From Candidatus Enterousia sp. (lineage in GTDB: Bacteria; Pseudomonadota; Alphaproteobacteria; Rs-D84): a stretch of 64,000 bases of DNA. Of the stretch, positions 13,025 through 58,743 are shown piece after piece. Location of the stretch: assembly GCA_045645065.1 (NCBI GenBank), contig JAZRIB010000012.1, positions 5,282-69,281 of the forward strand, written 5' to 3'. The translations under genes were made by a program, and so were the position numbers. The notes below the pieces were generated by a model, which worked only from the letters and a program-made list of their open reading frames with translations, did not search any database and was not told the origin of the DNA. The stretch's first letter is position 1, and each line of letters starts with the position of its first letter.

Positions 13025-13034
13025 TATATAGCTG

Positions 13035-13214: not shown

Positions 13215-13229
13215 TTTTTACCTTTTGTC

Positions 13230-34220: not shown

Positions 34221-34245
34221 AATAGAAAAAACCGCATTTTTGCGG

Positions 34246-35616: not shown

Positions 35617-35699
35617 CAAAAACACTTTAACATCTTTCCCAAACCACAACAAATCATGAACAAACTCTGTTCGCAAATTGCACGAGACGCCCTGCCAAA
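35617..35699. repeat. Rep-2 copy 3
   Basis: cactttaacatctttcccaaaccacaacaaatcatgaacaaactctgttcgcaaattgcacgagacgccctgccaaa. Followed by hairpin 35708..35725. Confidence 0.7.
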
Positions 35700-35731
35700 T
35701 CTGATTTTCCGTCCGTTTGGGCGGATTTTTA

Positions 35732-35830
35732 TTGAAAAAAATTGCGTTTTATGATATAATAAACACATTCAGCGGACGACATTGGTCGTCTATTTTTATT
35801 ACCCGCCACGTGCGGGTATTTTTTTTACCA
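35732..35830 (+). promoter_or_regulatory. Extended -10 promoter plus leader with two hairpin/T-run elements upstream of the GH108 gene
   Basis: TTGAAA (35732-37), 17-nt spacer, TGaTATAAT (to 35760). Then GGACGAC-attg-GTCGTC plus Ts, and TACCCGC-cacgt-GCGGGTA plus T9. Confidence 0.5.
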
Positions 35831-35841
35831 AAGGATTAAAT

Positions 35842-36906
35842 ATGTCAATCAAAGAATACACATCTATGCGAACCAAAGATTGGGTTCAGGCCGCAGGCAC
35901 ACTGGCCAACATATACGCAAAATTAAAAGGACAACAAGGCACTAATAATGGTCGTGATTCAACCGAACAATGCGATGGAATCGTTCAAGTGTCCGGATAC
36001 ACACGTGCCGATGGTACCGAAGTTGCACCATACGAGCGTATTTGCCCATATCACTATAACGGACAAAAACCAGAAAATAAGGATAAAAAAGAAGATAAGA
36101 ATAAAGAAAAAGATTTTAGCCTGAATGGTACAGTGTCATCGAGTGAAACAACAAATGATGACGATGTTATAAAACTGAAAAAGAACCTGTATAAAATGAA
36201 TTACTATAAGCCCAACGAGCGTAGCGAGCCTGACGGGCAGTTTCACAAATATGCAAATACAGAACTGATTACAGCGATTAAGGATTTTCAACGCGATAAC
36301 AATTTACCCGAAACCGGGCGAATATCATCGGGCGACGAAACAGAACGTGTGTTGAATAAAATCTTACGGCAAACATATCCATATAACAGAAACTTTGAAC
36401 GCGCATATAATAAATTACAAGAACCCGAAGGGGACTATACAGATGGCAAAGACCAAGTTCGAGATGAACCGACTAATATGGGCATAAAACAAAGCACGCT
36501 GGACAGATACGCTAACAAGCATCCAGACAAAAATTTCCCAGCAGATGTAAAATATCTAACCGCCACACAGGCCAAAGAAATCTATCGGCATGAATATTGG
36601 GATAATACAAAAATCCCAGAAATCAAAAACGACAGAATACGCGATGCGGTTTTCGATATGAATGTAATGGGACAATACAATGCAGGAAAAGTTGTTCAAC
36701 GCACATTGAATGCATACAGTGATACAAACTTAGTCGTTGATGGCATTATTGGGTCAAAAACAATATCTGAGCTAAATAGTATCCCAAGCAATAAAATTAA
36801 CGAGTTTATGAAAATTCTAATTGAGCAACGTATGAATAATTTACGAGGTATGACAAACTGGTCAACATCTAAAAACGGATGGACCAAGCGGACAAAAGCA
36901 TATTAG
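35842..36906 (+). CDS. Peptidoglycan hydrolase: PG_binding_1 + glycoside hydrolase 108 + PG_binding_3
   Basis: Start moved to MSIKEY. ITAIKDFQRDNNLPETG (PGB1), EGDYTDG..DEPTNMGI (GH108 catalytic block), VVDGIIGSKT (PGB3). Confidence 0.75.
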   Translation: MSIKEYTSMRTKDWVQAAGTLANIYAKLKGQQGTNNGRDSTEQCDGIVQVSGYTRADGTEVAPYERICPYHYNGQKPENKDKKEDKNKEKDFSLNGTVSSSETTNDDDVIKLKKNLYKMNYYKPNERSEPDGQFHKYANTELITAIKDFQRDNNLPETGRISSGDETERVLNKILRQTYPYNRNFERAYNKLQEPEGDYTDGKDQVRDEPTNMGIKQSTLDRYANKHPDKNFPADVKYLTATQAKEIYRHEYWDNTKIPEIKNDRIRDAVFDMNVMGQYNAGKVVQRTLNAYSDTNLVVDGIIGSKTISELNSIPSNKINEFMKILIEQRMNNLRGMTNWSTSKNGWTKRTKAY

Positions 36907-37277
36907 TTTTTGACTGGTGGCATAGCATTCAAAACATCAACCGCCCCAGGTATTTTATATATCTCTGAGCAACCTGCCATCAGTCCGACATTTTTACCGT
37001 CTACATATGTATATGCAATATCCACAGGAGCATCATTTATATAAATTTCATAAATATCTTCGCCAGGTTGCATAAAAGAGATTTTCTGAACGGTATTCAA
37101 CTTTGCTGTTGCATCATCACACAAGGGACAATATGCAATGTATTCGGTTGTGTTCAACAGGATATCGTATGCTTTATCAAATGCATTTTTATCAAGATAT
37201 GCGCATAAATCTGCTTTTCCTGACAATGGAAAAAACAACAAGATAAACAATGTAAAAAAAATATAATTTTTTTTCAT
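36903..37277 (-). CDS. Small secreted protein (signal peptide), unknown
   Basis: MKKNYIFFTLFILLFFPLSGKA signal. Convergent with the GH108 gene and overlapping its stop. Confidence 0.5.
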   Translation of the reverse strand: MKKNYIFFTLFILLFFPLSGKADLCAYLDKNAFDKAYDILLNTTEYIAYCPLCDDATAKLNTVQKISFMQPGEDIYEIYINDAPVDIAYTYVDGKNVGLMAGCSEIYKIPGAVDVLNAMPPVKN

Positions 37278-37291
37278 GCTTTGTAGTCATA

Positions 37292-37738
37292 TTGTACCAA
37301 TATACAAACAAAAATCAAGTTGCAGTATTTGATGGCAAGAAATTTACACTGTATGAAAATGACAAACCGATTATGTCATGGGATGCGGTGTCTGGCGCCA
37401 AGGGGTATCAAAGCCCAGAATATCAATATGTAAAAAAGAAAGGTACGATTCCAGAGGGCACATACGTTGCGAGACAATCAGGTTTGCAACACTACGATGA
37501 TTATAGCTTTGTAAAAAAACTCGCAAACTGGAAAGGAGGCCCCTCAGATTGGGGGAGGCATCGAGTATGGCTAGAGCCTGCAAGAAGCACCATCCTAAAA
37601 GGAAGAGACGGATTTTCAATTCATGGAGGAAAAGAATTTGGCTCTGCAGGATGTATCGACCTTGAAAAAAAGATTGATGATTTTACTAAATGGTTTGAAA
37701 ATAATAATAAGGATGTTATACTGCACGTAAGATATTAA
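37292..37738 (+). CDS. L,D-transpeptidase-fold toxin, DUF2778/Tlde1-like
   Basis: GRDGFSIHGGKEFGSAGCIDL matches the YkuD-type H..S.GC catalytic motif. TTG start only 14 nt from the divergent gene, so the 5' end is uncertain. Confidence 0.65.
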   Translation: MYQYTNKNQVAVFDGKKFTLYENDKPIMSWDAVSGAKGYQSPEYQYVKKKGTIPEGTYVARQSGLQHYDDYSFVKKLANWKGGPSDWGRHRVWLEPARSTILKGRDGFSIHGGKEFGSAGCIDLEKKIDDFTKWFENNNKDVILHVRY

Positions 37739-37740
37739 GA

Positions 37741-38073
37741 ATGAATAAATACACCAAATCTATATTCTATATCACACTGGCAATAATTACCGCTTGGAAT
37801 ATTTATATTTCAAGCGGTATTACGGAGCTAATATATGAAACAGCAATGTATGATTGCGGAGACGGTTGCCGTTGGGGTGCAGAATCTATGGGGTGGCTTT
37901 GGGCTAATCCATTCACATTTTTTATCTCTTTAGGGTTATTAGATGGAATATTTATCTGTATTACTATAATCGGCTTGTATAATACAATAAAGCGAAGATA
38001 CCGCAAGGCGTTTTACTATCTTATACTGCCGACAATTATTGGATTAATGTTTGTACGCATATTATCTTGGTAA
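37741..38073 (+). CDS. Multi-TM small protein, candidate cognate immunity protein 1
   Basis: Starts 3 nt after the toxin stop. Three hydrophobic segments and an IKRRYRKAFYYLILP motif shared loosely with 38266.. and 38787.. Confidence 0.5.
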   Translation: MNKYTKSIFYITLAIITAWNIYISSGITELIYETAMYDCGDGCRWGAESMGWLWANPFTFFISLGLLDGIFICITIIGLYNTIKRRYRKAFYYLILPTIIGLMFVRILSW

Positions 38074-38090
38074 CCATCATTATCATCTAG

Positions 38091-38269
38091 ACAAAACACC
38101 TGACATGGTTGGAGCCATCAAAAGAAACCAATACATATAGCCGTGATGATTTTAGTATTGGTGGCCAGGTTCCGCCGGTTGTATTGATTTGACAGAAAAT
38201 ATGGCAGATTTTACACAGTGGCTAAAAAAACATGGACAAGATTTGATTGTCAAAGTATCATACAGATGA
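38091..38269 (+). pseudogene. Orphan 3' fragment of a Tlde1-like toxin gene (frameshifted, catalytic His lost)
   Basis: Own translation: ..WLEPSKETNTYSRDDFSIGG.. then a +1 shift to GSAGCIDLTENMADFTQWLKKHGQDLIVKVSYR*. Aligns to residues ~95-148 of 37292..37738. Confidence 0.7.
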
Positions 38270-38568
38270 TGAGTTTCATAGCAGGCGTTTTATCTTTTAG
38301 TATACTATTATTCTTTATGAATGATTTGCGTGGACTTTTAAGTGTCAGCAAATGGGATGGCTTGCTATATTTTCTTTGTAATCAAAGCTGTTTAATACTT
38401 ATCGACCAGATTTGTATAATCTTATTCGGTATAACGTTTGTGCTGATTGCTAGTCACACAATCAAACGATATAAATGGAAATTCCTGTTTGTTCCAATAT
38501 TAGGAATGATTGTGTGGCTTATTTTAACATTGGCATACATTCTGGTTATGGATACGTTTTTTATGTGA
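38266..38568 (+). CDS. Multi-TM small protein, candidate immunity protein 2
   Basis: Start moved to MMSFIAGVL, overlapping the fragment stop (ATGATGA). TM-rich. IKRYKWKFLFVPIL motif. Confidence 0.5.
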   Translation: MMSFIAGVLSFSILLFFMNDLRGLLSVSKWDGLLYFLCNQSCLILIDQICIILFGITFVLIASHTIKRYKWKFLFVPILGMIVWLILTLAYILVMDTFFM

Positions 38569-38583
38569 CCACAATTGCTATGA

Positions 38584-38790
38584 CACGAGGTTTCTTGGGG
38601 CATTTCGCGCGTTTGGTTGGAACCATCAAATAAAACAAATACATACGGTCGTGACAATTTTAGCATACATGGCGGGTGGTGGCCGGGTTCCGCCGGATGT
38701 ATCGATTTAACAAATTATATCGATAACTTTACAAATTGGTTTGAAAATAATGGACTGGATTTGATTTTAAGTGTAAAATACAACCAATGA
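38584..38790 (+). pseudogene. Orphan 3' fragment of a Tlde1-like toxin gene (in frame, no start codon)
   Basis: Own translation HEVSWGISRVWLEPSNKTNTYGRDNFSIHGGWWPGSAGCIDLTNYIDNFTNWFENNGLDLILSVKYNQ*. Retains the H..SAGC motif but lacks the N-terminal ~85 residues. Confidence 0.7.
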
Positions 38791-39140
38791 AACACATGAA
38801 GTCTATATTATATGTTTTGGCACTACTGATATTACTGGGCTTATCAGCTATTGCAATGCTAGTGCCAATCTCTGAACTTCACTATATTTCTGTTATGGCA
38901 CCATACCCATATATACTAGATGGCGAATGTTGTAAATATATCGAATTTATGGGCTTAGAAATACGCACCATATATTATGTGGCCTTGTTGGTAATATATA
39001 CAATTGCACAATTGGTATTTGTGTGTTTTGGGATATATAAAGCCCTCATGAAAAAGTACTTTGTTGCACTGACATATCTGTTTGCCCCTGTTGCGATGGA
39101 AATATTTATGAGTTTGCTGCACTTACTGATATATAGCTAA
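38787..39140 (+). CDS. Multi-TM small protein, candidate immunity protein 3
   Basis: ATGA overlap with the fragment stop. TM-rich. LMKKYFVALTYLFAP motif. Confidence 0.5.
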   Translation: MKHMKSILYVLALLILLGLSAIAMLVPISELHYISVMAPYPYILDGECCKYIEFMGLEIRTIYYVALLVIYTIAQLVFVCFGIYKALMKKYFVALTYLFAPVAMEIFMSLLHLLIYS

Positions 39141-39224
39141 GCAAGACTTATCATTTGTTATTTTCAATCCATTCTGAAAGTTCGTTGATATTTCTGGCTA
39201 TTTCGTCATAGTCGCACAGCAATA

Positions 39225-39259
39225 AAGTTCGAAAGTCGTCCAGCTGGCCCTGCCAAAAA
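39225..39259. repeat. Rep-2 copy 4 (3' part only)
   Basis: ..gttcgaaagtcgtccagctggccctgccaaaaa followed by hairpin 39266..39281. Confidence 0.5.
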
Positions 39260-39281
39260 TCAAAATCACCCGTTTGGGCGA

Positions 39282-47328: not shown

Positions 47329-47360
47329 TGTCTGTATTGTGGCGATGTAAAATTATATGC

Positions 47361-47389
47361 TTGACTTTGATGTGAAAATATGATATACT
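47361..47389 (+). promoter_or_regulatory. Strong extended -10 promoter at the head of the phage-like cluster
   Basis: TTGACT, 17-nt spacer, TGaTATACT. Confidence 0.6.
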
Positions 47390-47415
47390 GATGCACATCA
47401 ACAGCAGAAATGATA

Positions 47416-47484
47416 TCCACAACGAAGGTTGGGGATTTTTTTTGTCTGTTTTTTTACCCGTACAATTTTTGTGCGGGTTTTTTA
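47416..47484 (+). terminator. Two tandem intrinsic terminators inside the leader of the phage-like cluster
   Basis: TCCACAAC-gaag-GTTGGGGA plus T8 (47416-43), and ACCCGTAC-aattttt-GTGCGGGT plus T6 (47456-84). Both lie between the promoter and the first ATG. Confidence 0.55.
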
Positions 47485-47518
47485 TTTATCAAAAATCTAA
47501 ATGGGGGGATTGTCAGAA

Positions 47519-47929
47519 ATGAAATTACAACTGATAAAAAATCCGGACGAAACAAAAAAATTATCATATCAAATTGCACGTGTTGTCTATGCAGAAACAT
47601 CTGCGTCATCACTGCCCGCGGTCGAAGCAATGGTATCAATGATAAAAAACGCATCGCGTGCCACCGGGGTAAATATTGCACAAATAATATCTGATACCGA
47701 TATGTTTGAATCATTAAATGATACATCAATGCGTCATGAAATGTTGTCGGTCCCCCCATCAGATCGTGGTTTTCAAATGTGCCTGCGTGTTGTGTCGCGT
47801 ATGTTGGCGGGCGGGTTGCCGGATATGTGCCGTGGTGCGACACGTTTTCATCATGGTGACATATTACCAGATTGGGCGCGTACACGCGGCTATATACTAG
47901 ATATTGATGAATTATTATTTTACTTGTAA
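47519..47929 (+). CDS. Cell wall hydrolase (SleB/Hydrolase_2-like)
   Basis: IARVVYAETSA..AMVSMIKN..RGATRFHHGDILPDWA..LLFY pattern. Confidence 0.65.
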   Translation: MKLQLIKNPDETKKLSYQIARVVYAETSASSLPAVEAMVSMIKNASRATGVNIAQIISDTDMFESLNDTSMRHEMLSVPPSDRGFQMCLRVVSRMLAGGLPDMCRGATRFHHGDILPDWARTRGYILDIDELLFYL

Positions 47930-47944
47930 TGGAATAAATTAAAT

Positions 47945-48142
47945 ATGAACAAATTTTTTAATGGTGGATTCCTGAACGGTTATCGCACATACATTATGTC
48001 TGGCGTTGGAATATTATCTGCGATTGCAGCATATATTGTCGGGGATACAGATATATTTATAATGTTGCAAAATATTTTTACACTGGGTGGAATTTACTTC
48101 TTACGCAAATCAAATGAACCAAAGGAAAAAACAAATGGATAA
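47945..48142 (+). CDS. Small membrane protein (holin-like by position)
   Basis: 65 aa, two hydrophobic segments, charged C-terminus. Sits next to the hydrolase. Confidence 0.4.
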   Translation: MNKFFNGGFLNGYRTYIMSGVGILSAIAAYIVGDTDIFIMLQNIFTLGGIYFLRKSNEPKEKTNG

Positions 48143-48791
48143 AATTCCAGAAAAATTTTTGAATGACGATGGAACGTTAAACGCAACTGCGCTATTAAAA
48201 TCATATTCTGAATTAGAAAAAAAGATTGGCACAATGATAACCGTACCAACAGATGACAGTGATGAAAATGTTCGCACACGTTTTAATCGCGCAATTGGTG
48301 TACCGCAATCAGCGAATGAATATCCAACAAATGAATTGTTTGATGATGAAAATCTAAAAAATAAATTTCACGAAATTGGATTAACAACACACCAAGTTGA
48401 AAAAATTTATTCTATTGCAAATGAAATTCTTGCGCCTGTGATATCAGAATTATATGCAATGCAAAATGAAAAAAACGCAATCACAGAATTAAAAAAATTT
48501 TTTGGTGACAATGAAAAAATGAATGATGCGTTGCGTGCCATTGAAGCGTTTGGTAAACAATATTTACCAGTCGATGCGTTTGATGAATTGTGTTCCTCGC
48601 CCCAGGGAATCCAAGGTGTTTATCGAATGATGCAATCAATGGAACCAAATGTTGAAACAGAAAAAAATGAAATAAAAAATTTATCAGATTCTGATTTGCG
48701 ACGTATGATGCGTGACCCAAAATATTGGCGTGATGGTGATACAGAATACATTCGCAAAATAGAAAATGGATTTAAAAAATTATATTCATAA
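48135..48791 (+). CDS. Capsid scaffolding/assembly protein (T7 gp9-like)
   Basis: Start moved to MDKIPEKFLNDDG. C-terminal LRRMMRDPKYWRDGDTEYIRKIENGF parallels the T7 gp9 tail MIKAMSDPRYRTDANYRRQVEQKV (recalled). Confidence 0.7.
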   Translation: MDKIPEKFLNDDGTLNATALLKSYSELEKKIGTMITVPTDDSDENVRTRFNRAIGVPQSANEYPTNELFDDENLKNKFHEIGLTTHQVEKIYSIANEILAPVISELYAMQNEKNAITELKKFFGDNEKMNDALRAIEAFGKQYLPVDAFDELCSSPQGIQGVYRMMQSMEPNVETEKNEIKNLSDSDLRRMMRDPKYWRDGDTEYIRKIENGFKKLYS

Positions 48792-48895
48792 GAAAAAATA
48801 TCACTTTCTTCTTTACTATTTTTTGATATTCATATAAAATACACAGTAAGAACAAAACAGATTTGTTCTATTTAAAAAATAGAAAGGAGAGGAAT

Positions 48896-49357
48896 ATGGC
48901 ATTCAGCCTGTTTAAGAAATCTGCTAAGAAAGCAGTTGCAAAACCAGTTGCAAAAAAAGAACCAGCAAAAAAACCAGTTGCAAAAAAAGCGCCTGCAAAA
49001 AAAGTAGCAGCAAAACCAGTTGCAAAGAAAGCACCTGCGAAAAAAGTAGCGGCAAAACCAGTTGCAAAGAAAGCACCTGCGAAAAAAACAGCAGCAAAAC
49101 CAGTTGCAAAGAAAGCACCTGCAAAAAAAGTAGCAGCAAAACCAGTTGCAAAGAAAGCACCTGCAAAAAAAGTAGTTGCAAAACCAGTTGCAAAGAAAGC
49201 ACCTGCAAAAAAAGTAGCGGCAAAACCAGTTGCAAAGAAAGCACCTGCGAAAAAAGTAGCAGCAAAACCAGTTGCAAAGAAAGTACCTGCGCAAAAAGTA
49301 GCAGTAAAACCATGTGCAAAAAAAGCATGTGCAAAAAAATGCGCAAAAAAGAAATAA
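48896..49357 (+). CDS. Histone H1-like Lys/Ala/Pro repeat protein with Cys-rich tail
   Basis: GGAGAGG RBS. About eight tandem [14 protein letters not shown] units. Tail [16 protein letters not shown]. Confidence 0.7.
48941..49306 (+). repeat. 42-nt coding tandem repeat (about 8 full units plus degenerate lead-in)
   Basis: aaaccagttgcaaagaaagcacctgcgaaaaaagtagcggca repeated head-to-tail with few substitutions. Confidence 0.9.
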
Positions 49358-49379
49358 TATAATTCATATTATTAATAAG

Positions 49380-49448
49380 CCCGGACAAACGTCCGGGTTT
49401 TGTTTTCTAAAAATTCAGTCAGATAAATTCCAGTCTGACTGAATTTTT
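49380..49448 (+). terminator. Two consecutive hairpins between the H1-like gene and the capsid gene
   Basis: CCCGGAC-aaac-GTCCGGG plus Ts, then a perfect 15-bp inverted repeat AAAAATTCAGTCAGA..TCTGACTGAATTTTT. Confidence 0.6.
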
Positions 49449-49573
49449 ATTGCGGACAAGTCTTGCCACCCCGCATTTATTTTTTATGTACACGGCGCAA
49501 TTTGCATAACCGTTACATAAATTTATCGCGCGTATGCGCTTTTTTGTATTTTAATCAAACAAAGGAAATAAAT

Positions 49574-50401
49574 ATGTCCGTTTCAATTGACCAGGTTTTC
49601 GTAAAACAATTCGAAGCCGATGTTCATTTGGCCTATCAACAGATGGGTACAAAACTGCGTTCTACTGTTCGCAGCAAATCAGGTGTTGTTGGTGCGTCCA
49701 CTACATTCCAAAAAGTTGGTCGTGGCACCGCCAGCACAAAATCACGTCACGGTATTGTTCCAGTGATGAATTTGAATCATGAACCTGTTGAATGTATGTT
49801 GACTGATTACTATGCCGGTGATTGGGTTGACGCATTAGATGAATTAAAAGTTAACATTGACGAACGTCGTGTTGTTGCGTCTGCGGGTGCGTATGCATTG
49901 GGACGCAAAACAGACGAATTAATCATTGATGCAATGAACGCATCAACATTATCTGTTGGTGATTATTCCACGGGCTTAACCAAAGATTTGATTTTGTCTG
50001 CGGTTGAAGTTTTGAATACAAACGATGTTCCTGATGATGGTCGTCGCTTTGCAGTTATTGGTGTGCACCAGTGGAATGAATTGCTGGCGATGGATGAATT
50101 TGTATCAGCGGATTATGTTGGTGATGCAAAAACATTGGTAAATGGTTTCGAAGCAAAAAAATGGTTGGGTATCACATGGGTATTGCATAATGGTTTACCT
50201 GTATCTGAATCAAATCGCGATTGCTTTATATATCACGCATCCAGCATCGGTCATGCATGCGGCCAAGAAGTCAAGACAGATATTTCATGGCACGGTGAAC
50301 GTGCGGCGCACTTTATCAGCAACAGTATGTCCCAAGGTGCAGTTTTAATCGATAACGATGGTATTGTACGTGTCAAGTGCAGTGATGCGCCTGCTGCATA
50401 A
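49574..50401 (+). CDS. Major capsid protein (T7 gp10-like, HK97 fold)
   Basis: Start moved to MSVSIDQVFVKQFEADVHLAY. Pattern parallels the T7 gp10 N-terminal region (FLKVFGGEVLTAF..). Position follows the scaffold gene. Confidence 0.75.
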   Translation: MSVSIDQVFVKQFEADVHLAYQQMGTKLRSTVRSKSGVVGASTTFQKVGRGTASTKSRHGIVPVMNLNHEPVECMLTDYYAGDWVDALDELKVNIDERRVVASAGAYALGRKTDELIIDAMNASTLSVGDYSTGLTKDLILSAVEVLNTNDVPDDGRRFAVIGVHQWNELLAMDEFVSADYVGDAKTLVNGFEAKKWLGITWVLHNGLPVSESNRDCFIYHASSIGHACGQEVKTDISWHGERAAHFISNSMSQGAVLIDNDGIVRVKCSDAPAA

Positions 50402-50439
50402 CGTGCCACAAATATATTTTTAACCAAAGGATAAAACTT

Positions 50440-50673
50440 ATGGCATTTCAAAATAAAAATTTGTCGGTTATTGCATATGCGAATGGATTTACATTGTGGC
50501 ACTATGCGTCCACAACAGAAAGCATTGCAACGATTTCATCGACGGGATACTTTAACGATGTCAAGACATTGATGAATATTGGTGACGTTGTAATTATTAA
50601 CGCATCTGATAACACATCGATAAAGAAAATTAACATCACAGCCAGCAACGTTACAACCGGTGCATTGGCATAA
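50440..50673 (+). CDS. Small head-module protein, unknown
   Basis: 77-aa ORF directly after the capsid gene. Confidence 0.4.
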   Translation: MAFQNKNLSVIAYANGFTLWHYASTTESIATISSTGYFNDVKTLMNIGDVVIINASDNTSIKKINITASNVTTGALA

Positions 50674-50742
50674 ATTTTTATTCAAACGGTGGTGTAATTT
50701 TACACCACCGCGAATTTATAAATAATTACAGTGGGGACAATT

Positions 50743-51261
50743 ATGCTTACAAAAATAGACTTGTGTTCCATGGCGTTACTGAAACTAGGCGAAGCGCCTA
50801 TTCAATCATTCAGTGATGATACAGCCACTGCACAATTGGCACGAACACTATTTGAACCCGTTACAGATGCATTAATTGCATTGCATCCATGGCGTTTTGC
50901 AACCCGACACATTGATTTAGTCCGCAACACGGATGGTGATTTTTTAATACCATCTGATGTATTGCGCGTATTGACCCCAGGGGGTGATGTTGTTGGTAAC
51001 AAAATTATTGCATCAACAGATAAAATCACGATATCAGCATGCACGCGTGTCGGTATAGATTCTTATCCGGGATATTTTGTTTCATTGGTGGCAACTAAAC
51101 TGGCAATGGAATTTTGTATTCCGTTATTGGGCGACCAGACCGTGTTCAGAATGTTAGCAGCATTGTATGAAACAGAATTGCAATCTGCTAAATTTATCGA
51201 CAGTACAACCGCCCCCAGTACAAAAATAGATAATTTTTCATTGATTAATGCACGGTTTTAA
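50743..51261 (+). CDS. Tail tubular protein A (T7 gp11-like)
   Basis: LCSMALLKLGEAPIQSFSDDTATAQLARTLF..LHPWRFA parallels T7 gp11 [38 protein letters not shown] (recalled). Confidence 0.65.
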   Translation: MLTKIDLCSMALLKLGEAPIQSFSDDTATAQLARTLFEPVTDALIALHPWRFATRHIDLVRNTDGDFLIPSDVLRVLTPGGDVVGNKIIASTDKITISACTRVGIDSYPGYFVSLVATKLAMEFCIPLLGDQTVFRMLAALYETELQSAKFIDSTTAPSTKIDNFSLINARF

Positions 51262-51273
51262 CGGGGGGGTAAA

Positions 51274-52989
51274 ATGGCAAATTTTATAAACACACAAAGT
51301 TCTTTTGCATATGGTGCTGTGTCACCTGAATTTTTTTGCCGTGATAATATTGATGGGTTATCAAAACTAGAAAATATGGACGTATTATCAGGTGGTGGTT
51401 TAACACGTCGATGCGGTCTGGAACATATTGCCACATTACAAGACAATGCGCGTCTGGTTTCGTTTTCTGTATCAGAACACGAAAATTATATTCTGGCGAT
51501 AATGTCGGGGCATATGCTTATTTATTCTGGCAACAAACTTGTTGGGGATTTATTTGTACCGTGGTCTGGGGGCGATTTAATGCGCCTGCAATATGCTCAA
51601 CGTTTTGATACGATAATATTTGTTCATCCAGACTATCCGCCACAAATCCTGACCAAGTCGCCCAGTGGTTTTGAAATAACAGATTTTATATTTGCACGTA
51701 ACGATTCTGATATGTCTGTGAATATACCGTTTATGCGGTTCGAAGACAGTCGTGACATAAAAATATCAGTTTCAACCAGTGACCGTGGCAATAATTATGC
51801 TAAATTTACCACAGATACTGATTTTTGGACGCCGGCGTATGTTGGAAATCGTTTGCTGTTATTGGATAAACAATGGCAGATAGAAGAATTTATCAGCCCA
51901 ACCGAAGTAATTGGATACATCAATGGTACATACAGTGTGCCAAGTAATTATGTGTCTGATTGGTACGAATCCGCGTTCAGTAAGGCTCGCGGTTGGCCAT
52001 GCAGTATCACATTTCACCAAGACAGACTGGTATTTGGTGGTTCGCGATCATATCCGTCTGGGGTATGGATGTCCCGTGTCGGACAACATAATAATTTTGA
52101 TGTTGGAACCGGTCTGGATGACGAAGCGATATTTATAACGCTGCTTTCACAACAGCGTCAGCAAATTTGTACCGTGGTCAGTGGTGATAACCTGCAAATT
52201 CTGACCACTGATGGGGAATGGGCGATTTCCAGTAAGCCATTAACACCGTCATTGGTCGATATAAAACAGCACACATCAGTCGGCAGTAACGCTACACGAT
52301 ATCTGCCACCGCAAAAGATAGAAGGTGCAACTGTATTCGTATCAAAAACAATGCGCGATATTCGGGAATTATCCTTGGATGATTTAGGTCAAAACTATAA
52401 TGCGACTGATTTATGTGCATTTGCAAAACACTTGATAACAAATCCTGTTGATATTGCATATAACGACGCAACGAACCAGTTATTTGTGGTTACAGATGAT
52501 GGCAATATGTCGGTGTTAAATCAGAACAGTGCGCTGGGGATTTCTGCATGGGGTCAATACAAAACATATGGAAAATTTATGTCAGTTGTGGTGACTGATG
52601 GCATAACATACGTTGTGACAATGCGCGATGGTGCATATAATCTGGAATGTTTTTCGCGTGCTGTATTAAACGATGCAAATAAATATGATTTTGCATTTTG
52701 CGCCCAATCTTTGCCATTTCGCGTATCGAATCACAATGTGTCACGCTTGCGCATACGCAAAGTTTCCGTGCGCCTATTAAATACGAAATCAGTATTTATA
52801 AACGGCACACGTGTTTCATTGCCAGATTCGATATATTCTGAAAATCATACGGGGTATTCAGGGGACGTGTCCATAAATTTACTGGGCACATCGGAATCGT
52901 GCATCACACCATATTGGACTATACACGGAAATGAACCGTATCCAATTACAGTGTTGTCGGTGTCTGTTTCTGGTGGATACAGTATTTAA
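51274..52989 (+). CDS. Tail tubular protein B (T7 gp12-like), by position and size
   Basis: 571-aa ORF immediately after the gp11-like gene. No motif I can verify. Confidence 0.5.
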   Translation: MANFINTQSSFAYGAVSPEFFCRDNIDGLSKLENMDVLSGGGLTRRCGLEHIATLQDNARLVSFSVSEHENYILAIMSGHMLIYSGNKLVGDLFVPWSGGDLMRLQYAQRFDTIIFVHPDYPPQILTKSPSGFEITDFIFARNDSDMSVNIPFMRFEDSRDIKISVSTSDRGNNYAKFTTDTDFWTPAYVGNRLLLLDKQWQIEEFISPTEVIGYINGTYSVPSNYVSDWYESAFSKARGWPCSITFHQDRLVFGGSRSYPSGVWMSRVGQHNNFDVGTGLDDEAIFITLLSQQRQQICTVVSGDNLQILTTDGEWAISSKPLTPSLVDIKQHTSVGSNATRYLPPQKIEGATVFVSKTMRDIRELSLDDLGQNYNATDLCAFAKHLITNPVDIAYNDATNQLFVVTDDGNMSVLNQNSALGISAWGQYKTYGKFMSVVVTDGITYVVTMRDGAYNLECFSRAVLNDANKYDFAFCAQSLPFRVSNHNVSRLRIRKVSVRLLNTKSVFINGTRVSLPDSIYSENHTGYSGDVSINLLGTSESCITPYWTIHGNEPYPITVLSVSVSGGYSI

Positions 52990-53022
52990 TCAACAAACTA
53001 AACACAAAAAAGGAAATTTATT

Positions 53023-53370
53023 ATGGGACAACTTGTATCAGATGTCAGTGAAATCTTGGTTTATCAAGACGAAAAAAAACAGGCAAAAAACGCTCGCCAA
53101 GAAATATTGCGACAAATGGCGACAGACCAAGCCGAAAAAACAAATCTGGTTAAAAAGGTTTTGGCAACCCAGCGTGCAAAATATGGCGCATCTGGCGTGT
53201 CATCGCGTGGCATGACCCAGGGGGCTGTACTGGCGCGGTTAAAATCAGAAACCGAACAGCCGTATACTGAAAAACGTAACGCGAATTTGAAAAAATTAAA
53301 ATCAACACGTGCCAAGAAACCTAATTTATTAAAAACAATATTGTCGCGTTTTGATGACTTAGTCGGCTAG
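53023..53370 (+). CDS. Small basic coiled-coil protein (possible internal virion protein)
   Basis: 115 aa, K/R/Q-rich. Position is equivalent to T7 gp13-16 but far smaller. Confidence 0.35.
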   Translation: MGQLVSDVSEILVYQDEKKQAKNARQEILRQMATDQAEKTNLVKKVLATQRAKYGASGVSSRGMTQGAVLARLKSETEQPYTEKRNANLKKLKSTRAKKPNLLKTILSRFDDLVG

Positions 53371-53385
53371 GAATAGGGGGGATTT

Positions 53386-53934
53386 ATGTATAAAATATCT
53401 TATATCGCAGATGGTGCAACAACTGAATTTGAATTTGCGTTCCCTTTTTTCCAGTCGGCTGATATTCATGTTGCGATAAACGAACGTGTATTGACCCCAG
53501 ACGAATATTCTGTTGTCGAAAATACAACTTTTGATGGTGGGCGTGTTGTGTTTAATGACGCGCCAATCTTGGACAGTCGCATAGATATTTATCGTATTGT
53601 TGCATTGTCGCGTGTTGTCGATTACCAGCCAACCGCAAAAATAGACCCAGAACATCTGAATGCGGATTTTAATTTTTTAATTGAAGCCTTAAAAGATATA
53701 CACGCCCCAAATGTTGACATAGAAGCATGGCGTAATGTTCATACGAATACAGTTGCGTTCTTGGAATATACCAATGATTTAATCCAAGATAAATTAACCG
53801 GTGGCGGCACATTAGGGATTTTCAAGAATCTGCTATCTGTACTGGATAATGCATTACCAAAATTGATTAATGATTATGGATATATAACCGATGATGCCCC
53901 AATCAATACGCGCGATGATTACGGTTTACTGTAA
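53386..53934 (+). CDS. Tail fibre N-terminal (tail-attachment) domain protein, T7 gp17-N-like, lacking a distal receptor-binding part
   Basis: YKISYIADGATTEFEFAFPFFQSADIHVAINERVL..IDIYRIV..VDYQP..LNADFNFLIEA matches the gp17 N-domain pattern. Only 182 aa. Confidence 0.65.
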   Translation: MYKISYIADGATTEFEFAFPFFQSADIHVAINERVLTPDEYSVVENTTFDGGRVVFNDAPILDSRIDIYRIVALSRVVDYQPTAKIDPEHLNADFNFLIEALKDIHAPNVDIEAWRNVHTNTVAFLEYTNDLIQDKLTGGGTLGIFKNLLSVLDNALPKLINDYGYITDDAPINTRDDYGLL

Positions 53935-53938
53935 TTTT

Positions 53939-54520
53939 ATGGACGAATGGAATCGTGTTCTGGGACAGACGACACCGGCGCATCATCGACAAATAATGAA
54001 TTTTTTAGTAGATGTTATAAACGATGATATGCATCGTGGATTGTTGATGGCGTTTCGTCATTCTGGCAAATCCACGGTCGTTGGAATTTTTGCAGCCTGT
54101 ACGTTATATATGTTTCCCAGCACCAGAATATTGATTTTATCTGCGCACAATACATTGGCGACACGTATGGTTGGGCACATCCGTCATATTTTGGAAAACC
54201 ATCCGTGGTGTTCTGAATTAATTCCTGTATCACGACGTGATTGGGCCACTGGCCATATAACAATAAACAGACCAATTGGGATTCGTGAACCGTCTGTTAT
54301 ATGCCAGGGTATCCATGGCAATATTACCGGTATGCGCGCAGACCTTATCATATGTGATGATATAGAAGTTCCAAATACATCAAACACTCCACAAAAGCGG
54401 GAAAATCTGCGTGAAAGATTACGCGAATTGGATTTTATCTTGTCGCCCAGTGGCACGATGATTTACATTGGTACACCGCATACCATGGATACAATATATC
54501 GCACAGACAGAACAGACTAG
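53939..54520 (+). pseudogene. Terminase large subunit, N-terminal ATPase half (interrupted)
   Basis: Walker A AFRHSGKST, Walker B LIICDDIEVP, coupling motif IGTPHT. Reads 7 aberrant codons (RTDRTD*) after ..MDTIY. Confidence 0.8.
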
Positions 54521-55173
54521 GCAACGTCTTCGCTTTTTATAGAACTGATAAATGTGCGCAGGCGCGTCAACAAATCGTCTCCGGCATTTCCAAACATCGG
54601 CAGGTACGTTTCATATTCTGGCATATCTGCTTGGATTTCTGCACGTGTACGTTCATCCAATGGTGTATTAATAATTTTATTTGCCGTATCCCATAACTGA
54701 TATGCGCGATATGTTTGTTTAACAATAAACCATTTTTTCTGCATATCTGGATAACTGCCCAGTGCATCATGAATTGCATTCGCCCATTCTTCACCGAAAC
54801 GACGAACGATATTCAAACGTTCGATTTTTTCTAATCCGGCCTGATCGGGGGTAAATTCTGCCAACACAGATTGTAATTCGTTCAAATCTTTTTGTGACAA
54901 TGTCGTATTTGTTAAATTTGATTGGGTCATCAAACCGCCATACGGTATCAAATCAGGTTCAATAGAATCCATAGGTGTTTTGCCGCTGCGCAGATTTTCA
55001 ATATGTCTGATAAGCATTTTGCCTGTTGGCATTTCGCGCAATTCTTTGATAACGTCATCTGTTGCTTCTGATACCAACACAGGGTTAACTGTTGCCCAAC
55101 CACCGATGATAACATGTTCTTGTCGGTACAGATTTAATAATCTTTGTGCGGTTGCCGCAATTCGTGCTTTCAT
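54517..55173 (-). CDS. Hypothetical protein (218 aa)
   Basis: Last gene of the inserted block. Its stop overlaps the aberrant terL-N stop in CTAG. Confidence 0.45.
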   Translation of the reverse strand: MKARIAATAQRLLNLYRQEHVIIGGWATVNPVLVSEATDDVIKELREMPTGKMLIRHIENLRSGKTPMDSIEPDLIPYGGLMTQSNLTNTTLSQKDLNELQSVLAEFTPDQAGLEKIERLNIVRRFGEEWANAIHDALGSYPDMQKKWFIVKQTYRAYQLWDTANKIINTPLDERTRAEIQADMPEYETYLPMFGNAGDDLLTRLRTFISSIKSEDVA

Positions 55174-55210
55174 ATTATGCCTCTCTCACTCTGGTACGGA
55201 ATCTGTTGCG

Positions 55211-56218
55211 TTATTCCATAACAATCATAATAATTTTATGCATTGTTTGTGCGCTAATTTTTTCTTCTGGGCTGACCATTTGTCCGTATATTTTCCCTTT
55301 AGAATCTTGGCGTACAGTTGCGATTTGTGCGCTAAGATTTGTTTCAGAATCCAACGCATTGAAATCAGTATCAATAAATACCGCCAAATCCCCCACCGCC
55401 ACAGGTGCGTCAATGTCTGCAAACAGGTATGATTTTTCAGGGATAAAACCACCCAAACGTTTAGAATTCGGTATCACTGCGTATATGCCACTGCGTCCTT
55501 CCAGTGAACTTGGCGCAACAATCATTGTTTTGTCAGATTTTTTGAATGTGATTGATTTGCCAGATGGTGTTCCAAACACAGGCACTAATTTTTTACGCGC
55601 GCTATCATACAGTTTTGCACCGTATAACCCACCACTCATATCAATACTTGATAACGGGTTTCCGGGTTCCAGAACAGATTTCACACGTTCTTTGACTTTG
55701 TTAATATGTTTGTTCAAATCACCGCTTTTATACAGCATTGCGATTTTATCAAACATACTTTCCACCGTCATTGCGAACGATTTTGCCAACGGTTCGATTT
55801 CATTTTCATATATTTCGCGTTGTCCAACTTCGATTTTATGATACACAGACAACGTCATACCTGCATCTTTGGCGGCGCGTGCAATTGTTTTTCCAGTTTG
55901 TTGACGAATACGGCGCAAACCACTGCCGAAAATTTTCAGACCACCATCTTCGTTATCGTTCAGACGGCGTTTAATTTCTGTTTGCCATTGTTCAGCTACT
56001 TCATCAGATTCTTTGATGAAAATATCAGATAATTTACAACCCAAAATATTACAGATATTTAACAACTGTTTCTGGTTCAGACGACGAACGCCCTTTTCAA
56101 TTTTGGAAACAGCTGACAAAGACAACCCAGCACGACGTGCCAATTCTGTCATTTTCATGCCGTTTTTCAATCGAATATTTCTGATATTATTTGGAAAAAT
56201 AATTTCTTCTTGGGCCAT
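55211..56218 (-). CDS. XRE-family regulator with two HTH domains and a CI/LexA (S24)-like C-terminal domain (tentative)
   Basis: Start moved to MAQEEIIF. IRNIRLKNGMKMTELARRAGLSLSAVSKIEKG and LRRIRQQTGKTIARAAKDAGMTLSVYHKIEVG. C-terminal beta-rich region VPVFG..VGDLAVFID. Confidence 0.65.
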   Translation of the reverse strand: MAQEEIIFPNNIRNIRLKNGMKMTELARRAGLSLSAVSKIEKGVRRLNQKQLLNICNILGCKLSDIFIKESDEVAEQWQTEIKRRLNDNEDGGLKIFGSGLRRIRQQTGKTIARAAKDAGMTLSVYHKIEVGQREIYENEIEPLAKSFAMTVESMFDKIAMLYKSGDLNKHINKVKERVKSVLEPGNPLSSIDMSGGLYGAKLYDSARKKLVPVFGTPSGKSITFKKSDKTMIVAPSSLEGRSGIYAVIPNSKRLGGFIPEKSYLFADIDAPVAVGDLAVFIDTDFNALDSETNLSAQIATVRQDSKGKIYGQMVSPEEKISAQTMHKIIMIVME

Positions 56219-56290
56219 TGTGCAACTCCTTAAAAACAATCTTGACAAAATAATAGTCAATTTTTAAGACTTGCGCAAGTAAATAATCAC

Positions 56291-57847
56291 TTACAATGGC
56301 ATATCGTCTGGAATTGCATCAATATCAATTGGTGTTGGTGAAAATTCAGAACCATCCAGCGGAACACTGGTTGCAGGTTGTGGTGCGATATTTTCGCCAC
56401 GTGTATCAAATTCATCTGGCAAATTATCGAACAAACTATAATCACCAAAGAACGCCGTGCGTACTGTTTCTGGGCGACCGTGACGGTTTTTCCCGATGAT
56501 AATATCAGCCTTGCCACGTGATTGTTCGTATCGTTTTTGCCATGATTCAACCATCGAAGAATTTGTCGTGTTTGAAATACGTTCTGACGGGTTACGGTTC
56601 GCCAGATAGTATTCTTCACGGTACGTGAACATAACGATGTCAGCGTCTTGTTCAATAGACCCTGATTCACGCAAGTCTGCCAACTGTGGGCGTTTGTCAT
56701 CACGTTGTTCAACGCTACGTGACAACTGGGACAGTGCGATAACAGGTACGTCTAATTCTTTGGCTAACATTTTTAGCCCTCGTGTGATTTCAGAAATTTC
56801 CTGAACACGATTGTCGTTACGTTTTCCCCCCGGCGACGTCATCAGCTGCAGATAGTCCACCACAATCAATGACACGCCACCATATTTACGTGCCAAACGA
56901 CGTGCGCGTGTACGCATCATTGGAACCGACATACCTGGTGTATCGTCGATACACAATGGAATTTTGCTGATTGCATCGGCATATTGTTGCATTTTCAACA
57001 TGTCTTCATCCGTCAGGCTACCTTCACGCATCGCCGATGCTGGAACTTTGGACTGGGATGACAGAACACGTGCTGCCAATTGTGAATGTGACATTTCAAG
57101 GCTGAAAAATATAACCGCACCTTTGTAATTTTTATTTGCCATACCATAATGGATTGCGTTGGCGGCATTAAATGCGATATTCATAGCCAGTGTTGTTTTA
57201 CCCATTGCTGGACGACCTGCAACGATGATTAAATCAGAATGATGTAAACCACTTATTGATTTATCCAGTGCGGTCAGTCCTGTTGTCAAACCAGACAACT
57301 GTCCATCGGCCTTGTATGCTGTTTCTGCTTCCTGTAAGGCTGCCTTTAATGCGGTTTCAATTGAAACGGCATCGCGTTCAGACGAACCAGTGGTCGCCAT
57401 ATCAAATAATTTTTGTTCTGCAACTTCTATCTGGCGGTTAACAGGATTATCCAGGTCTTCGACAAATGCGTTATCCATAATATCCTGGGCCAGGTTAATT
57501 AATTGTCGTCTTTGTGCGTTTTCATATACGATACGCCCGTATTGTTCAACATTAACGACGGTTGCGCCCGCCCCAGACAACTGGGTTAAATAATCCACCC
57601 CACCAACGGATTCTAATACCCCCTGTTGTTCAAGGTATGTTTTTGCTGTAATGATGTCAAATGGGATGCCTGCGGCAAATTGACGTTCCGCCAGTTTATA
57701 AATCTCTTGGTGGGCGGGGTGCGAAAAATGTTCCGCGGTCAAGAATTCAGACACACGTTCCAATGCGCGATTGTTCATTAATACAGCGGCCAGTACTGCC
57801 TGTTCTGCTTCCAGATTGGTTGGCAAAGTCTTAGGGGTAAAATCCAT
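56291..57847 (-). CDS. dnaB: Replicative DNA helicase DnaB (cellular, alphaproteobacterial type)
   Basis: Start moved to MDFTPKTLPTNLEAEQAVLAA (the longer ORF overlaps terL-C). GRPAMGKTT Walker A, LIVVDYLQLM, ALSQLSR, ADLRESGSIEQDAD. Insertion between Y..EYY and GKNRHG is typical of alpha-type DnaB. Confidence 0.9.
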   Translation of the reverse strand: MDFTPKTLPTNLEAEQAVLAAVLMNNRALERVSEFLTAEHFSHPAHQEIYKLAERQFAAGIPFDIITAKTYLEQQGVLESVGGVDYLTQLSGAGATVVNVEQYGRIVYENAQRRQLINLAQDIMDNAFVEDLDNPVNRQIEVAEQKLFDMATTGSSERDAVSIETALKAALQEAETAYKADGQLSGLTTGLTALDKSISGLHHSDLIIVAGRPAMGKTTLAMNIAFNAANAIHYGMANKNYKGAVIFFSLEMSHSQLAARVLSSQSKVPASAMREGSLTDEDMLKMQQYADAISKIPLCIDDTPGMSVPMMRTRARRLARKYGGVSLIVVDYLQLMTSPGGKRNDNRVQEISEITRGLKMLAKELDVPVIALSQLSRSVEQRDDKRPQLADLRESGSIEQDADIVMFTYREEYYLANRNPSERISNTTNSSMVESWQKRYEQSRGKADIIIGKNRHGRPETVRTAFFGDYSLFDNLPDEFDTRGENIAPQPATSVPLDGSEFSPTPIDIDAIPDDMPL

Positions 57848-57872
57848 GTCAAAATCCTTTTCCTTAACGCCA

Positions 57873-58712: not shown

Positions 58713-58743
58713 CACAATCAAACAACAACCAAAAGGATAAAAA

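Follow-up and report, generated by a model that had tools for sequence, protein, structure and literature searches.

A putative polymorphic peptidoglycan toxin/immunity array with displaced Tlde1 cassettes, and its possible link to a phage-derived programme, in Candidatus Enterousia

We analysed a 64,000-nucleotide (nt) stretch of DNA from Candidatus Enterousia sp. (assembly GCA_045645065.1, contig JAZRIB010000012.1, positions 5,282-69,281 of the forward strand), referred to here as the window, and concentrated on the locus at window positions 35720-39140, where a gene ending in a muramidase domain is followed by three modules of the L,D-transpeptidase-like toxin domain Tlde1. Comparison with related loci makes it very probable that this locus is a polymorphic peptidoglycan toxin/immunity array. 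A conserved N-terminal carrier, a PG_binding_1 domain and a linker would be joined to an exchangeable C-terminal wall-attacking enzyme in one expression slot (35842-36906), and a downstream store would hold one complete Tlde1 domain and two C-terminal tips, each with its own gene for a candidate immunity protein with three transmembrane (TM) segments. The fuller statement, in which the array is rearranged by recombination, gated by a leader RNA and tied to a phage-derived programme, is one that we favour with noticeably less assurance. The features of the locus are as follows.

35720..35841, plus strand: 5' regulatory leader of the toxin gene (promoter and terminator scan, RNA fold, covariance model)
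35732-35760, plus strand: promoter TTGAAA-17-TATAAT with TG, the best promoter of the region
35774-35791, plus strand: hairpin 1 and T-run (terminator scan)
35800-35818, plus strand: hairpin 2 and T-run, then the ribosome-binding site (RBS) AAAGGA (terminator scan)
35842..36906, plus strand: predicted expressed polymorphic toxin gene, 354 amino acids (aa) (Pfam and the N-terminus shared with relatives)
35842-36141, plus strand: carrier type C segment, part of the 354-aa gene
36142-36366, plus strand: PG_binding_1 (Pfam, 39.7 bits)
36367-36906, plus strand: GH108 muramidase, C-terminal toxin (Pfam Glyco_hydro_108, 52.5 bits)
36903..37277, minus strand: 124-aa protein (p124) with signal peptide, candidate periplasmic immunity protein to the GH108 tip (convergent, co-travels)
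37292..37738, plus strand: module M1, putative displaced complete Tlde1 domain without carrier (Pfam, AlphaFold2 and Foldseek, alignment)
37741..38073, plus strand: M1 immunity candidate, 110 aa, family immB (found about 20 nt downstream of Tlde1 in 26 loci)
38091..38269, plus strand: module M2, frameshifted toxin tip, catalytic His lost (DNA alignment, family model)
38266..38568, plus strand: M2 immunity candidate, 100 aa, three TM segments, family immA (follows Tlde1 in 45 loci)
38584..38790, plus strand: module M3, in-frame toxin tip without start codon (family model, positions 79-143)
38787..39140, plus strand: M3 immunity candidate, 117 aa, three TM segments, family immC (follows Tlde1 in 14 loci)

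Enterousia belongs to the order Rs-D84, whose Enterousia genomes measure 0.75-1.0 Mb and lack respiration and flagella (PMC12306168). A first search with the 148-aa product of M1 returned only about 30 metagenomic relatives, several of them N-terminally extended. A scan with one genome per GTDB species gave 280 relatives, and an exhaustive search of 1.84 billion representatives added further full-length relatives with other tips. Locus comparisons were made on the best 80 loci of the 280 relatives, nearly all of them from gut or rumen metagenome-assembled genomes (MAGs) of Alphaproteobacteria, many being Candidatus Enterousia. Tips and complete domains were mapped with a domain hidden Markov model (HMM) run on six-frame translations of the loci, and detailed module maps were drawn for 17 loci. 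All neighbours within 9 kb were clustered for about 80 loci, and the context of ten loci was annotated with Pfam.

The preliminary description of this DNA found no carrier in the window. We identified one immediately upstream of the Tlde1 modules, in the open reading frame (ORF) at 35842-36906 (35782/35842-36906); it is a carrier because proteins of sister genomes fuse its N-terminal ~175 aa to Tlde1. These 175 residues are 71-93% identical to Tlde1-ending proteins such as P0036, a 277-aa protein of an NCBI Enterousia MAG that consists of the same carrier and Tlde1, with a C-terminal tail matching M2. The N-terminus of P0004, which shares the PG_binding_1 and linker part, matches residues 118-192 with 79% identity; beyond this stretch the window protein continues into GH108, and P0004 into Tlde1. 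The same carrier is followed by Tlde1 in P0036, P0042, P0043, L016, L033, L021 and L073, by GH108 in the window protein and P0041, by GH24 in P0046 and P0049, and by tips of unknown type in P0037 and P0076. A common N-terminal part with alternative C-terminal toxin domains, as expected of polymorphic toxins, is thus present. Judged by these alignments, the gene at 35842-36906 is the predicted polymorphic toxin in the expression slot, and all three Tlde1 modules are putative displaced cassettes.

Three types of N-terminal carrier (A, B and C) precede the same toxins. The window carrier, type C, is composed of a helix, one Cys-flanked copy of a widespread VSGYTR.DGT.V..YTR repeat, a Lys/Glu-rich linker and PG_binding_1. 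The repeat copy occupies residues ~41-73 (35962-36060) and reads CDGI.QVSGYTRADGTEV.PYERICPY; the VSGYTR.DGT.V..YTRS repeat also occurs three to six times in unrelated bacterial and eukaryote-like proteins (P0047, P0048, P0051, P0052, P0054). Type A (MQTPKFL...) holds a VW.WHSE..C..C...HPNC.C motif. It scored 24.8-26.6 bits against Pfam Phage_Mu_F (PF04233), below the cut-off of 29.6, and matched 14 PHROG families of minor-head or head-morphogenesis proteins (best E 1.8e-8); one type A gene (L104) has a precomputed Phage_Mu_F match. Type B shares the MuF motif with type A (hhalign 95.4%) and has PG_binding_1. Kinship of the N-terminal part of type C to types A and B was considered and dropped, hhalign having given no detectable relation. 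Pfam and PHROG revealed no signal peptide or known trafficking domain in type C, no signal peptide was seen by eye in types A, B and C, and the type A profile had no relative in the PDB.

The tip of the carrier gene appears to have an immunity partner of its own. The gene at 36903-37277 on the minus strand had been treated merely as a divergent neighbour of M1. The GH108 tip borders directly on a gene of the opposite strand in 12 of the 15 loci examined; the products, of 124-144 aa, begin with a hydrophobic segment resembling a signal peptide and fall into at least three families. At L021 only the last 33 codons of GH108 are left, and the convergent p124 gene still stands beside them. From this position, p124 is the likely immunity protein of the GH108 tip.

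The claim of the preliminary description that 37292-37738 encodes a toxin of the Tlde1/DUF2778 type, with an L,D-transpeptidase fold, stood up well. The Pfam families Tlde1_dom (PF10908; 38.2 bits, cut-off 30.1) and YkuD (31.7 bits, cut-off 23.4) both matched above their curated cut-offs, and the family profile matched the solved structure of Tlde1a (7UMA, E 3.4e-8). The AlphaFold2 model had a mean predicted local distance difference test score (pLDDT) of 92.2, and the first three Foldseek ranks in the PDB were Tlde1a entries (7UO8, 7UO3 and 7UMA; TM-score 0.69), followed by L,D-transpeptidases of the YkuD type; sequence identity to Tlde1a was 24%. The YkuD-type catalytic string that had been reported, SIHGGKEFGSAGCIDL, is present in the ORF, and the catalytic His111 and Cys121 (pattern H..G......GS.GC) are invariant in 23 relatives. 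As modelled, the M1 domain is a Tlde1a-like variant of the L,D-transpeptidase fold, and the Tlde1 domain would act as an L,D-carboxypeptidase/transpeptidase-type enzyme that attacks peptidoglycan.

The same ORF had been taken for an intact toxin, a reading that did not survive comparison with full-length relatives. The 148-aa ORF of M1 opens with TTG, at a distance of 14 nt from the ATG of the divergent gene at 36903-37277, and the doubts already raised about this start were borne out: the coordinates are correct, and no Shine-Dalgarno (SD) sequence is visible upstream of the TTG. Its alignment with P0004 begins in the linker, at ..TNKNQVAVFDGKKF, and the promoter scan gave no plus-strand promoter between 36906 and 37292. 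Because it starts inside the linker, without carrier, SD sequence or plus-strand promoter of its own, the 148-aa ORF is itself, on this sequence evidence, a predicted displaced cassette and not a delivered protein.

The two fragments downstream were also found much as first described. M2, reported as frameshifted and deprived of its His, matches the toxin 3' end in two frames (HMM positions 85-107, 26 bits; 109-143, 52 bits). Alignment of the three modules at the DNA level shows a gap of 10 nt with respect to M3, by which its HGG codons were lost, and its tail matches that of the predicted expressed toxin P0036/L008. M3, reported as in frame and without a start, matched the family HMM over positions 79-143 with 117 bits and Pfam Tlde1_dom with 25.2 bits, a score below the cut-off, as M3 is only part of the domain. 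Compared with the carrier-Tlde1 genes of L021 and L016, M3 has a core (93 nt) with 92.5-93.5% identity and a tail with 57-58%. As noted before, ATGA is shared between each tip and the ORF after it (at 38266 and 38787), and the multi-TM ORF of about 110 aa seen directly after M1 indeed starts at 37741, 2 nt past the M1 stop, with two or three hydrophobic segments over 110 aa.

A 105-118-aa ORF, mostly with three hydrophobic segments, follows the Tlde1 domain by about 20 nt in essentially all loci, where it forms five clusters and is the sole strongly conserved neighbour within 9 kb. The preliminary description grouped the three TM ORFs of the window as divergent relatives. They are indeed divergent membrane proteins of conserved families; a common origin is not demonstrable. 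Their nucleotide identity of 52-56% is at the level of unrelated sequences, and they belong to three different conserved families. With hhalign, immA was joined to immD (97.6%) and immB to immE (97.8%), the match between immB and immC (M1 and M3) was weak (22%), and there was none between immA and immB (M2 and M1), which rules out treating the three as one family. None of the immunity candidates, p124 included, matched Pfam or NCBIfam, and an exact-sequence look-up of the M1 immunity protein found nothing. Position, conservation and co-variation suggest that these small adjacent proteins are protective. The arrangement expected of polymorphic toxins, an immunity gene after each tip together with stand-alone cassettes, is found by position, and the immunity function is a prediction.

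Each toxin tail also contains a pair of hexamers resembling a sigma-70 promoter (37695-37722, 38233-38261 and 38751-38779), ending 5-19 nt before the ATG of the TM ORF. Such pairs may be internal promoters that keep the immunity genes on independently. The number of promoter-like sites does not exceed the shuffled expectation, and the tail pairs amount to a positional coincidence seen three times.

Displaced tips recur well beyond the window. Among 126 matches to the Tlde1 domain in related loci, 25 are C-terminal-only tips beside a gene of a recognised immunity family. Most loci carry a complete domain at the end of a 330-420-aa ORF, and about 35 of the 80 have C-terminal-only fragments downstream. 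The 17 mapped loci contain the same modules in differing order. In one layout, that of the window and of L010, L011 and L029 (97-99% identity), the carrier-PG_binding_1-GH108 gene is followed by p124 on the minus strand, the complete Tlde1 and the tips; in the other (L021, L016, L033, L008, L073, L018) a carrier-PG_binding_1-Tlde1 gene is followed by its immunity gene and tips. Runs of immunity genes without any toxin fragment occur at L042, L070 and L016. These maps uphold the displaced-tip and orphan-immunity architecture that had been proposed, with tips beside immunity candidates of their own.

The boundaries of the modules point to two sites of exchange. All 25 tips begin at HMM positions 79-118, at or after a WG.SRVWLEP motif, and after GCID their tails are specific to the immunity family downstream: ...MTGQINAFTSWLESTGKDLIVHVKY goes with immB, ...LT.HIDEFTQWFEKNGHDLIINVKY with immC and ...LTSNIDNFVALF...IKVEY with immD. 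The immunity family was predicted better by the tail (positions 119-143; area under the curve, AUC, 0.75) than by the N-terminal 78 positions (AUC 0.61). In 44 toxin pairs with N-terminal parts more than 75% identical and differing immunity families, tails were 46% and cores 74% identical. The exchanged tail corresponds to helix 125-138 and strand 141-146 of the AlphaFold2 model. The sharp drop in identity after GCID is consistent with homologous recombination within the catalytic core. Tlde1, GH108 and GH24 interchange at a second junction, the linker that precedes the domain (FE.PVN....Q.A.FDGK).

These observations suggest how such an array could work. Homologous recombination would move cassettes into and out of the expression slot through the two conserved junctions, the linker junction giving whole-domain swaps and the catalytic-core junction (WLEP..HGG..GSAGCID) giving exchange of the final ~25 residues along with the immunity gene. 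Immunity genes would remain on, guarding against the toxins of neighbours.

The toxin gene is preceded by a leader of conserved layout (35720-35841), which folds with -21.1 kcal/mol (z -3.17), both hairpins forming as predicted. The layout is kept in 42 loci and all three carrier types, with 94.6% of counted cells paired. Double-change cells numbered 25 against 7.2 in shuffles, and hairpin 1 covaries between AU, GC and UA at two positions. Rfam holds no family for the leader. A covariance model built from it (R1) scored 113.5 bits at the toxin gene, its sole strong match in the window, and found 88 matches in 1.28 Mb of toxin loci. Of the extra leaders, those inspected lie before additional carrier-toxin genes and before genes for stand-alone GH24 lysozymes, for a true Phage_Mu_F protein of 201 aa (41.7 bits) and for small Mtd_N proteins resembling tail fibres (43.6 and 55.6 bits). 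Copies found elsewhere with R1 include the following.

L122:2306-2453, L121:31-186, L008:4879-4993 (minus strand), L029:1790-1918, and others: leader copies

R1 also matched, with 30-50 bits (E 2e-6 to 8e-3), directly 5' of a phage-like operon that opens with a SleB-like gene, in all eight of the IMG/VR loci covering the region, and each of these eight operon leaders has a promoter, two units of hairpin and T-run, and an RBS. Transcription from the near-consensus promoter of the toxin gene would have to pass the two leader terminators, and the gene is therefore probably off without an antitermination signal. The distribution of the leader suggests a dispersed gene set gated by terminator read-through, that is, one antitermination-controlled regulon. 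Because the leader is common to the toxin, the capsid/tail/lysis operon, and MuF and fibre-like genes, the toxin would be expected to be made with the particle and lysis programme; for such co-regulation with the phage-derived capsid and lysis genes we hold the balance to be even.

A sequence of ~85 nt occurs twice near the leader, at 34140-34253 and 35620-35726 (~85% identical; ..caaatcatgaa.aaac..tgttcg..aattgcacgagacgccctgcca..). Both copies end in a terminator-like hairpin, and they flank a 160-aa ORF and a HAD gene. L024 and L040 have comparable 'aattgcaca' stretches on the upstream side of leaders. The repeat has no Rfam family and could be a small RNA, a regulatory site or an attachment site.

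The phage-like operon has its counterpart in the window, 9 kb from the toxin locus and behind housekeeping genes.

47349..59973, plus strand: conserved podovirus-derived structural and lysis cluster (Pfam, PHROG)

Its order is leader, SleB-like hydrolase, holin-like ORF, T7-type scaffold, Lys-rich protein, capsid (249 bits), tail tube A, tail tube B, a fibre represented by its N-terminal domain only, and a 209-aa ATPase fragment of the terminase TerL, followed by p218, a helix-turn-helix (HTH) gene and dnaB on the minus strand, and last by the portal (277 bits). The nearest phage capsids are those of a human-faecal contig (60%) and of Pelagibacter podophages (46%). The capsid is found in 65 IMG/VR contigs at 61-96% identity, at least 75% in all but four, and at least 48 contigs share the gene order of the cluster down to the embedded dnaB and the short terminase fragment; identity is 70-95% for DnaB and ~50-79% for tube B in typical contigs. 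Since this gene order, embedded dnaB included, is identical across at least 48 contigs, comparison points to an element kept by selection and vertical inheritance rather than to a sporadic prophage. The cluster looks domesticated, in the manner of a gene transfer agent (GTA), in Rs-D84 Alphaproteobacteria. Tight linkage of capsid, portal or rpsD to the toxin loci had also been considered as a candidate and was rejected (capsid at none of the loci, rpsD at only four).

Toxins made under such a programme would leave the cell by programmed lysis or as virion cargo. That MuF-type or analogous carriers load the enzymes into capsids made from the 12-kb cluster is a speculative idea which we rate as rather doubtful. 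Under it, the same antitermination leader would switch the capsids on, neighbouring cells would receive the enzymes in their periplasm by injection from the particles, and survival would depend on the immunity proteins, three-TM or periplasmic. T7 gp16 is an ejected virion protein, and a wall-degrading enzyme on a podovirus particle has precedent.

Several results weigh against parts of the reading developed here. The association of tails with immunity families could reflect physical linkage rather than recognition. The carrier of the window gave no Pfam or PHROG match to MuF and only 0.9% in hhalign against type A, the AlphaFold2 model of the carrier-GH108 protein was too poor to use (pLDDT 48.5), and type A carriers had no match in IMG/VR, leaving a phage-borne origin not demonstrable. 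R1 includes generic promoter, T-run and RBS features, and at the leader of the operon in the window (47349-47497) it scored only 21 bits, although a promoter is visible there along with a single hairpin of terminator type. Within 10 kb of the toxin, the 80 loci gave no match to capsid, portal or terminase. The search for secretion systems covers 64 kb of this genome and the related loci. Comparison itself supplies the domain identities, the common carrier with alternative tips, the conserved small neighbours, the recurrent mosaic tips and the leader shared with phage-type genes; from these we infer toxicity, cognate protection, expression, recombination, termination and antitermination at the leader, co-expression and the route of exit.

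Other explanations of the locus have to be set against a recombining array under phage-type control. The preliminary description named tandem-duplication debris as the case that would overturn its view, and the state of the modules could suggest as much, M2 being frameshifted and without its His, M3 start-less and M1 poorly started. However, the three downstream ORFs are intact, at 52-56% nucleotide identity, in three families conserved in 14-45 loci, the tips are mosaics with a sharp drop in identity after GCID, and the same architecture is found in dozens of species. Module maps and mosaic tips largely refute this explanation, to which we give hardly any credence. The proteins could also be ordinary effectors of a type VI or type IV secretion system (T6SS, T4SS) or another system, with the machine elsewhere in the genome and the N-termini serving as adaptor or loading domains. 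The Tlde1 family is mostly linked to T6SS (43-77% near T6SS genes, depending on family), and some members lie near genes of type I, II, IV or V systems (T1SS, T2SS, T4SS or T5SS) (preprint); the part of the genome in view is 64 kb, and a VirB8 gene lies 9 kb away in the related locus L008. In the window, a scan of nearly all ORFs of at least 150 aa gave no gene for T6SS, T4SS, T5SS, VgrG, PAAR, Rhs or CdiA, confirming the earlier statement that genes for T6SS, VgrG/PAAR, Rhs and CdiA are absent there; besides the toxin locus we found housekeeping genes, glycosyltransferases, a small mobile region and the phage-like cluster. That VirB8 gene was the only secretion gene among the Pfam-annotated genes of ten related loci, and apart from the immunity partner no conserved neighbour, including Hcp, VgrG, PAAR and chaperone families, appeared in about 80 loci. 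A T6SS of 13 or more genes is unlikely in genomes of 0.75-1.0 Mb (PMC12306168), and the toxin ends exactly at its domain, which leaves no C-terminal signal of the T4SS type. We consider such a machine improbable as the answer.

There are two further alternatives. Soluble bacteriocins released by lysis and imported through a receptor, without any particle, would resemble pesticin, in which an N-terminal import part of ~165 aa precedes a lysozyme-like C-terminus. Pesticin and colicin M combine a small import part with a wall-directed enzyme, are released by lysis, and have periplasm-facing or membrane immunity proteins, sometimes convergently encoded. The size and layout of the toxins resemble pesticin, the toxins are predicted to act in the periplasm with immunity candidates in the membrane or facing the periplasm, one immunity gene has the convergent orientation known from colicin M and the pore-forming colicins, and a holin-like ORF and SleB-like gene form a lysis pair under the same leader design. 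Against this, no TonB-box-like or Tol-box-like N-terminus was seen by eye in the three carrier types, PG_binding_1 is not a feature of known import domains, and the phage minor-head (MuF) motif of types A and B is unexpected in a receptor-binding domain; no plasmid or SOS context is present here, in further contrast to pesticin and colicin M. We regard free bacteriocins as unlikely. Finally, the enzymes might not be weapons at all, and instead be virion-associated or housekeeping wall enzymes of the phage element, with TM ORFs that are holin-like or unrelated. Enzymes of the GH108, GH24 and L,D-peptidase classes do occur in phage lysins, and the leader is common to the toxin genes and the capsid operon. 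Replacement of tips at one locus, arrays of start-less tips, runs of immunity genes alone and the co-variation of tails with TM ORFs are, however, hallmarks of conflict systems that a structural lysin would not be expected to show, and a peaceful role appears quite improbable.

The polymorphic array reading places the locus beside several known systems. With the T6SS effector Tlde1a and its immunity protein Tldi1a (Tae5/Tai5; DUF2778), of Salmonella and other proteobacteria, it shares the Pfam family, the His and Cys, the fold, an adjacent immunity gene and the predicted periplasmic peptidoglycan target. It differs in its 24% identity, in lacking a T6SS context, in its small new PG_binding_1 carriers in place of stand-alone or Rhs-fused toxins, in immunity families with three TM segments and no Pfam match, and in its orphan toxin tips. 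The DUF2778 superfamily is T6SS cargo with immunity proteins that are periplasmic (Tai5, Tai6) or contain TM segments (Tai7), and rare Rhs fusions and orphan immunity genes are known (preprint). The earlier contrast between membrane-seated candidates and a periplasmic Tldi1 is upheld insofar as the candidates are hydrophobic, with three TM segments, and weakened by Tai7, with which membrane immunity is not unprecedented in the superfamily. L,D-peptidase domains of polymorphic toxins were predicted in 2012 on Rhs- and T6SS-type carriers with Imm16 or Imm57 (PMC3482391). In the literature that we searched there was no description of orphan toxin tips for DUF2778, in agreement with the earlier remark that tip arrays are not known for Tlde1-type effectors.

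The arrays of CdiA-CT/CdiI and Rhs-CT/RhsI have the same start-less displaced tips, conserved upstream stretch, individual immunity genes and mosaic identity. Here, in contrast, the carrier measures 100-230 aa (~175 in the window) and not thousands, there is no VENN or PxxxxDPxGL junction, Pfam detected no Rhs or haemagglutinin repeats in the locus, and one junction lies inside the catalytic core, so that only the last ~25 residues and the immunity gene are exchanged. MuF polymorphic toxins of temperate phages are encoded in prophages next to the portal, and delivery in the capsid has been proposed (PMC3482391; PMC5576092); the words 'peptidoglycan', 'lysozyme' and 'orphan' are absent from the main text of Jamet et al. 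2017 (PMC5576092). Relatives with type A or B carriers likewise have the MuF motif before a variable toxin, and then a small immunity ORF, whereas type C of the window has no detectable MuF, the genes are chromosomal and not beside portal or terminase, and the toxins are peptidoglycan enzymes; PG_binding_1 and the MuF motif also set the family apart from pesticin and colicin M. Like GTAs, the system has a vertically conserved phage structural cluster and dispersed accessory loci under a common control element, known here from genes alone, and its terminase, by contrast, is only a 209-aa ATPase fragment. The podovirus-like element resembling a GTA that has so far been reported is FpGTA of Faecalibacterium (PMC12946183), and the literature searched showed no polymorphic toxin/immunity cassettes linked to a GTA.

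What is new here is the carrier families, the three-TM immunity families, the exchange of tips inside a catalytic core, and the leader-defined link to a domesticated podovirus-like cluster in strongly reduced genomes. The displaced-tip logic of polymorphic toxins is extended to peptidoglycan toxins of the Tlde1 type, and exchange at sub-domain resolution (last helix, strand and immunity gene) points to the part that immunity proteins may recognise. The new carrier and membrane immunity families occur in hundreds of uncultured Alphaproteobacteria of the gut, with genomes that leave too little room for most secretion machines. A leader with two terminators, common to toxin and phage-derived genes, offers a testable route for toxin release or delivery and a handle on how MuF-linked toxins reach their targets. 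If the toxins did prove to be particle cargo, they would represent a capsid-borne, kin-discriminating hybrid of bacteriocin and GTA in bacteria with genomes below 1 Mb, and the first natural system to offer a dedicated chromosomal particle to which the long-standing idea of MuF toxins travelling in capsids could be traced.

Tlde1-like domains occur in phage contexts as well. An IMG/VR scan with the Tlde1 profile gave only distant (33-47%) stand-alone Tlde1-like genes in prophage-like contigs (L090-L101), none of them MuF fusions, and the Burkholderia podophage JC1 has a DUF2778 gene beside its terminase (PMC9144972). The L090-L101 proteins measure ~200 aa and carry a conserved C-terminal extension (..NVSYPEYD..RWEPDG..SLRDALRIFE), sometimes with two genes per contig. 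In the P0010 loci a Tlde1 gene without carrier has a gene for a 461-aa reverse transcriptase immediately upstream (RVT_1; L001/L002:7931-9316, minus strand), with ParB_N, GIY-YIG and SEC-C proteins nearby; the setting may be a mobile island.

Elsewhere in the window, the low-GC stretch beside the toxin locus encodes, at 32465-34015 on the minus strand, a 516-aa protein with MORN_2 repeats, a weak RHS_repeat match and then DnaJ; a homologue 65% identical to it lies 4-6 kb downstream of the toxin in L050. A small patch of mobile and defence-like character at 7848-15582, beside the tRNA gene at 15510-15582, contains a serine resolvase (7848-8465), a DUF5906 primase-like gene (9209-11395) and an ATPase of the AAA_21/AbiEii type (11759-13024).

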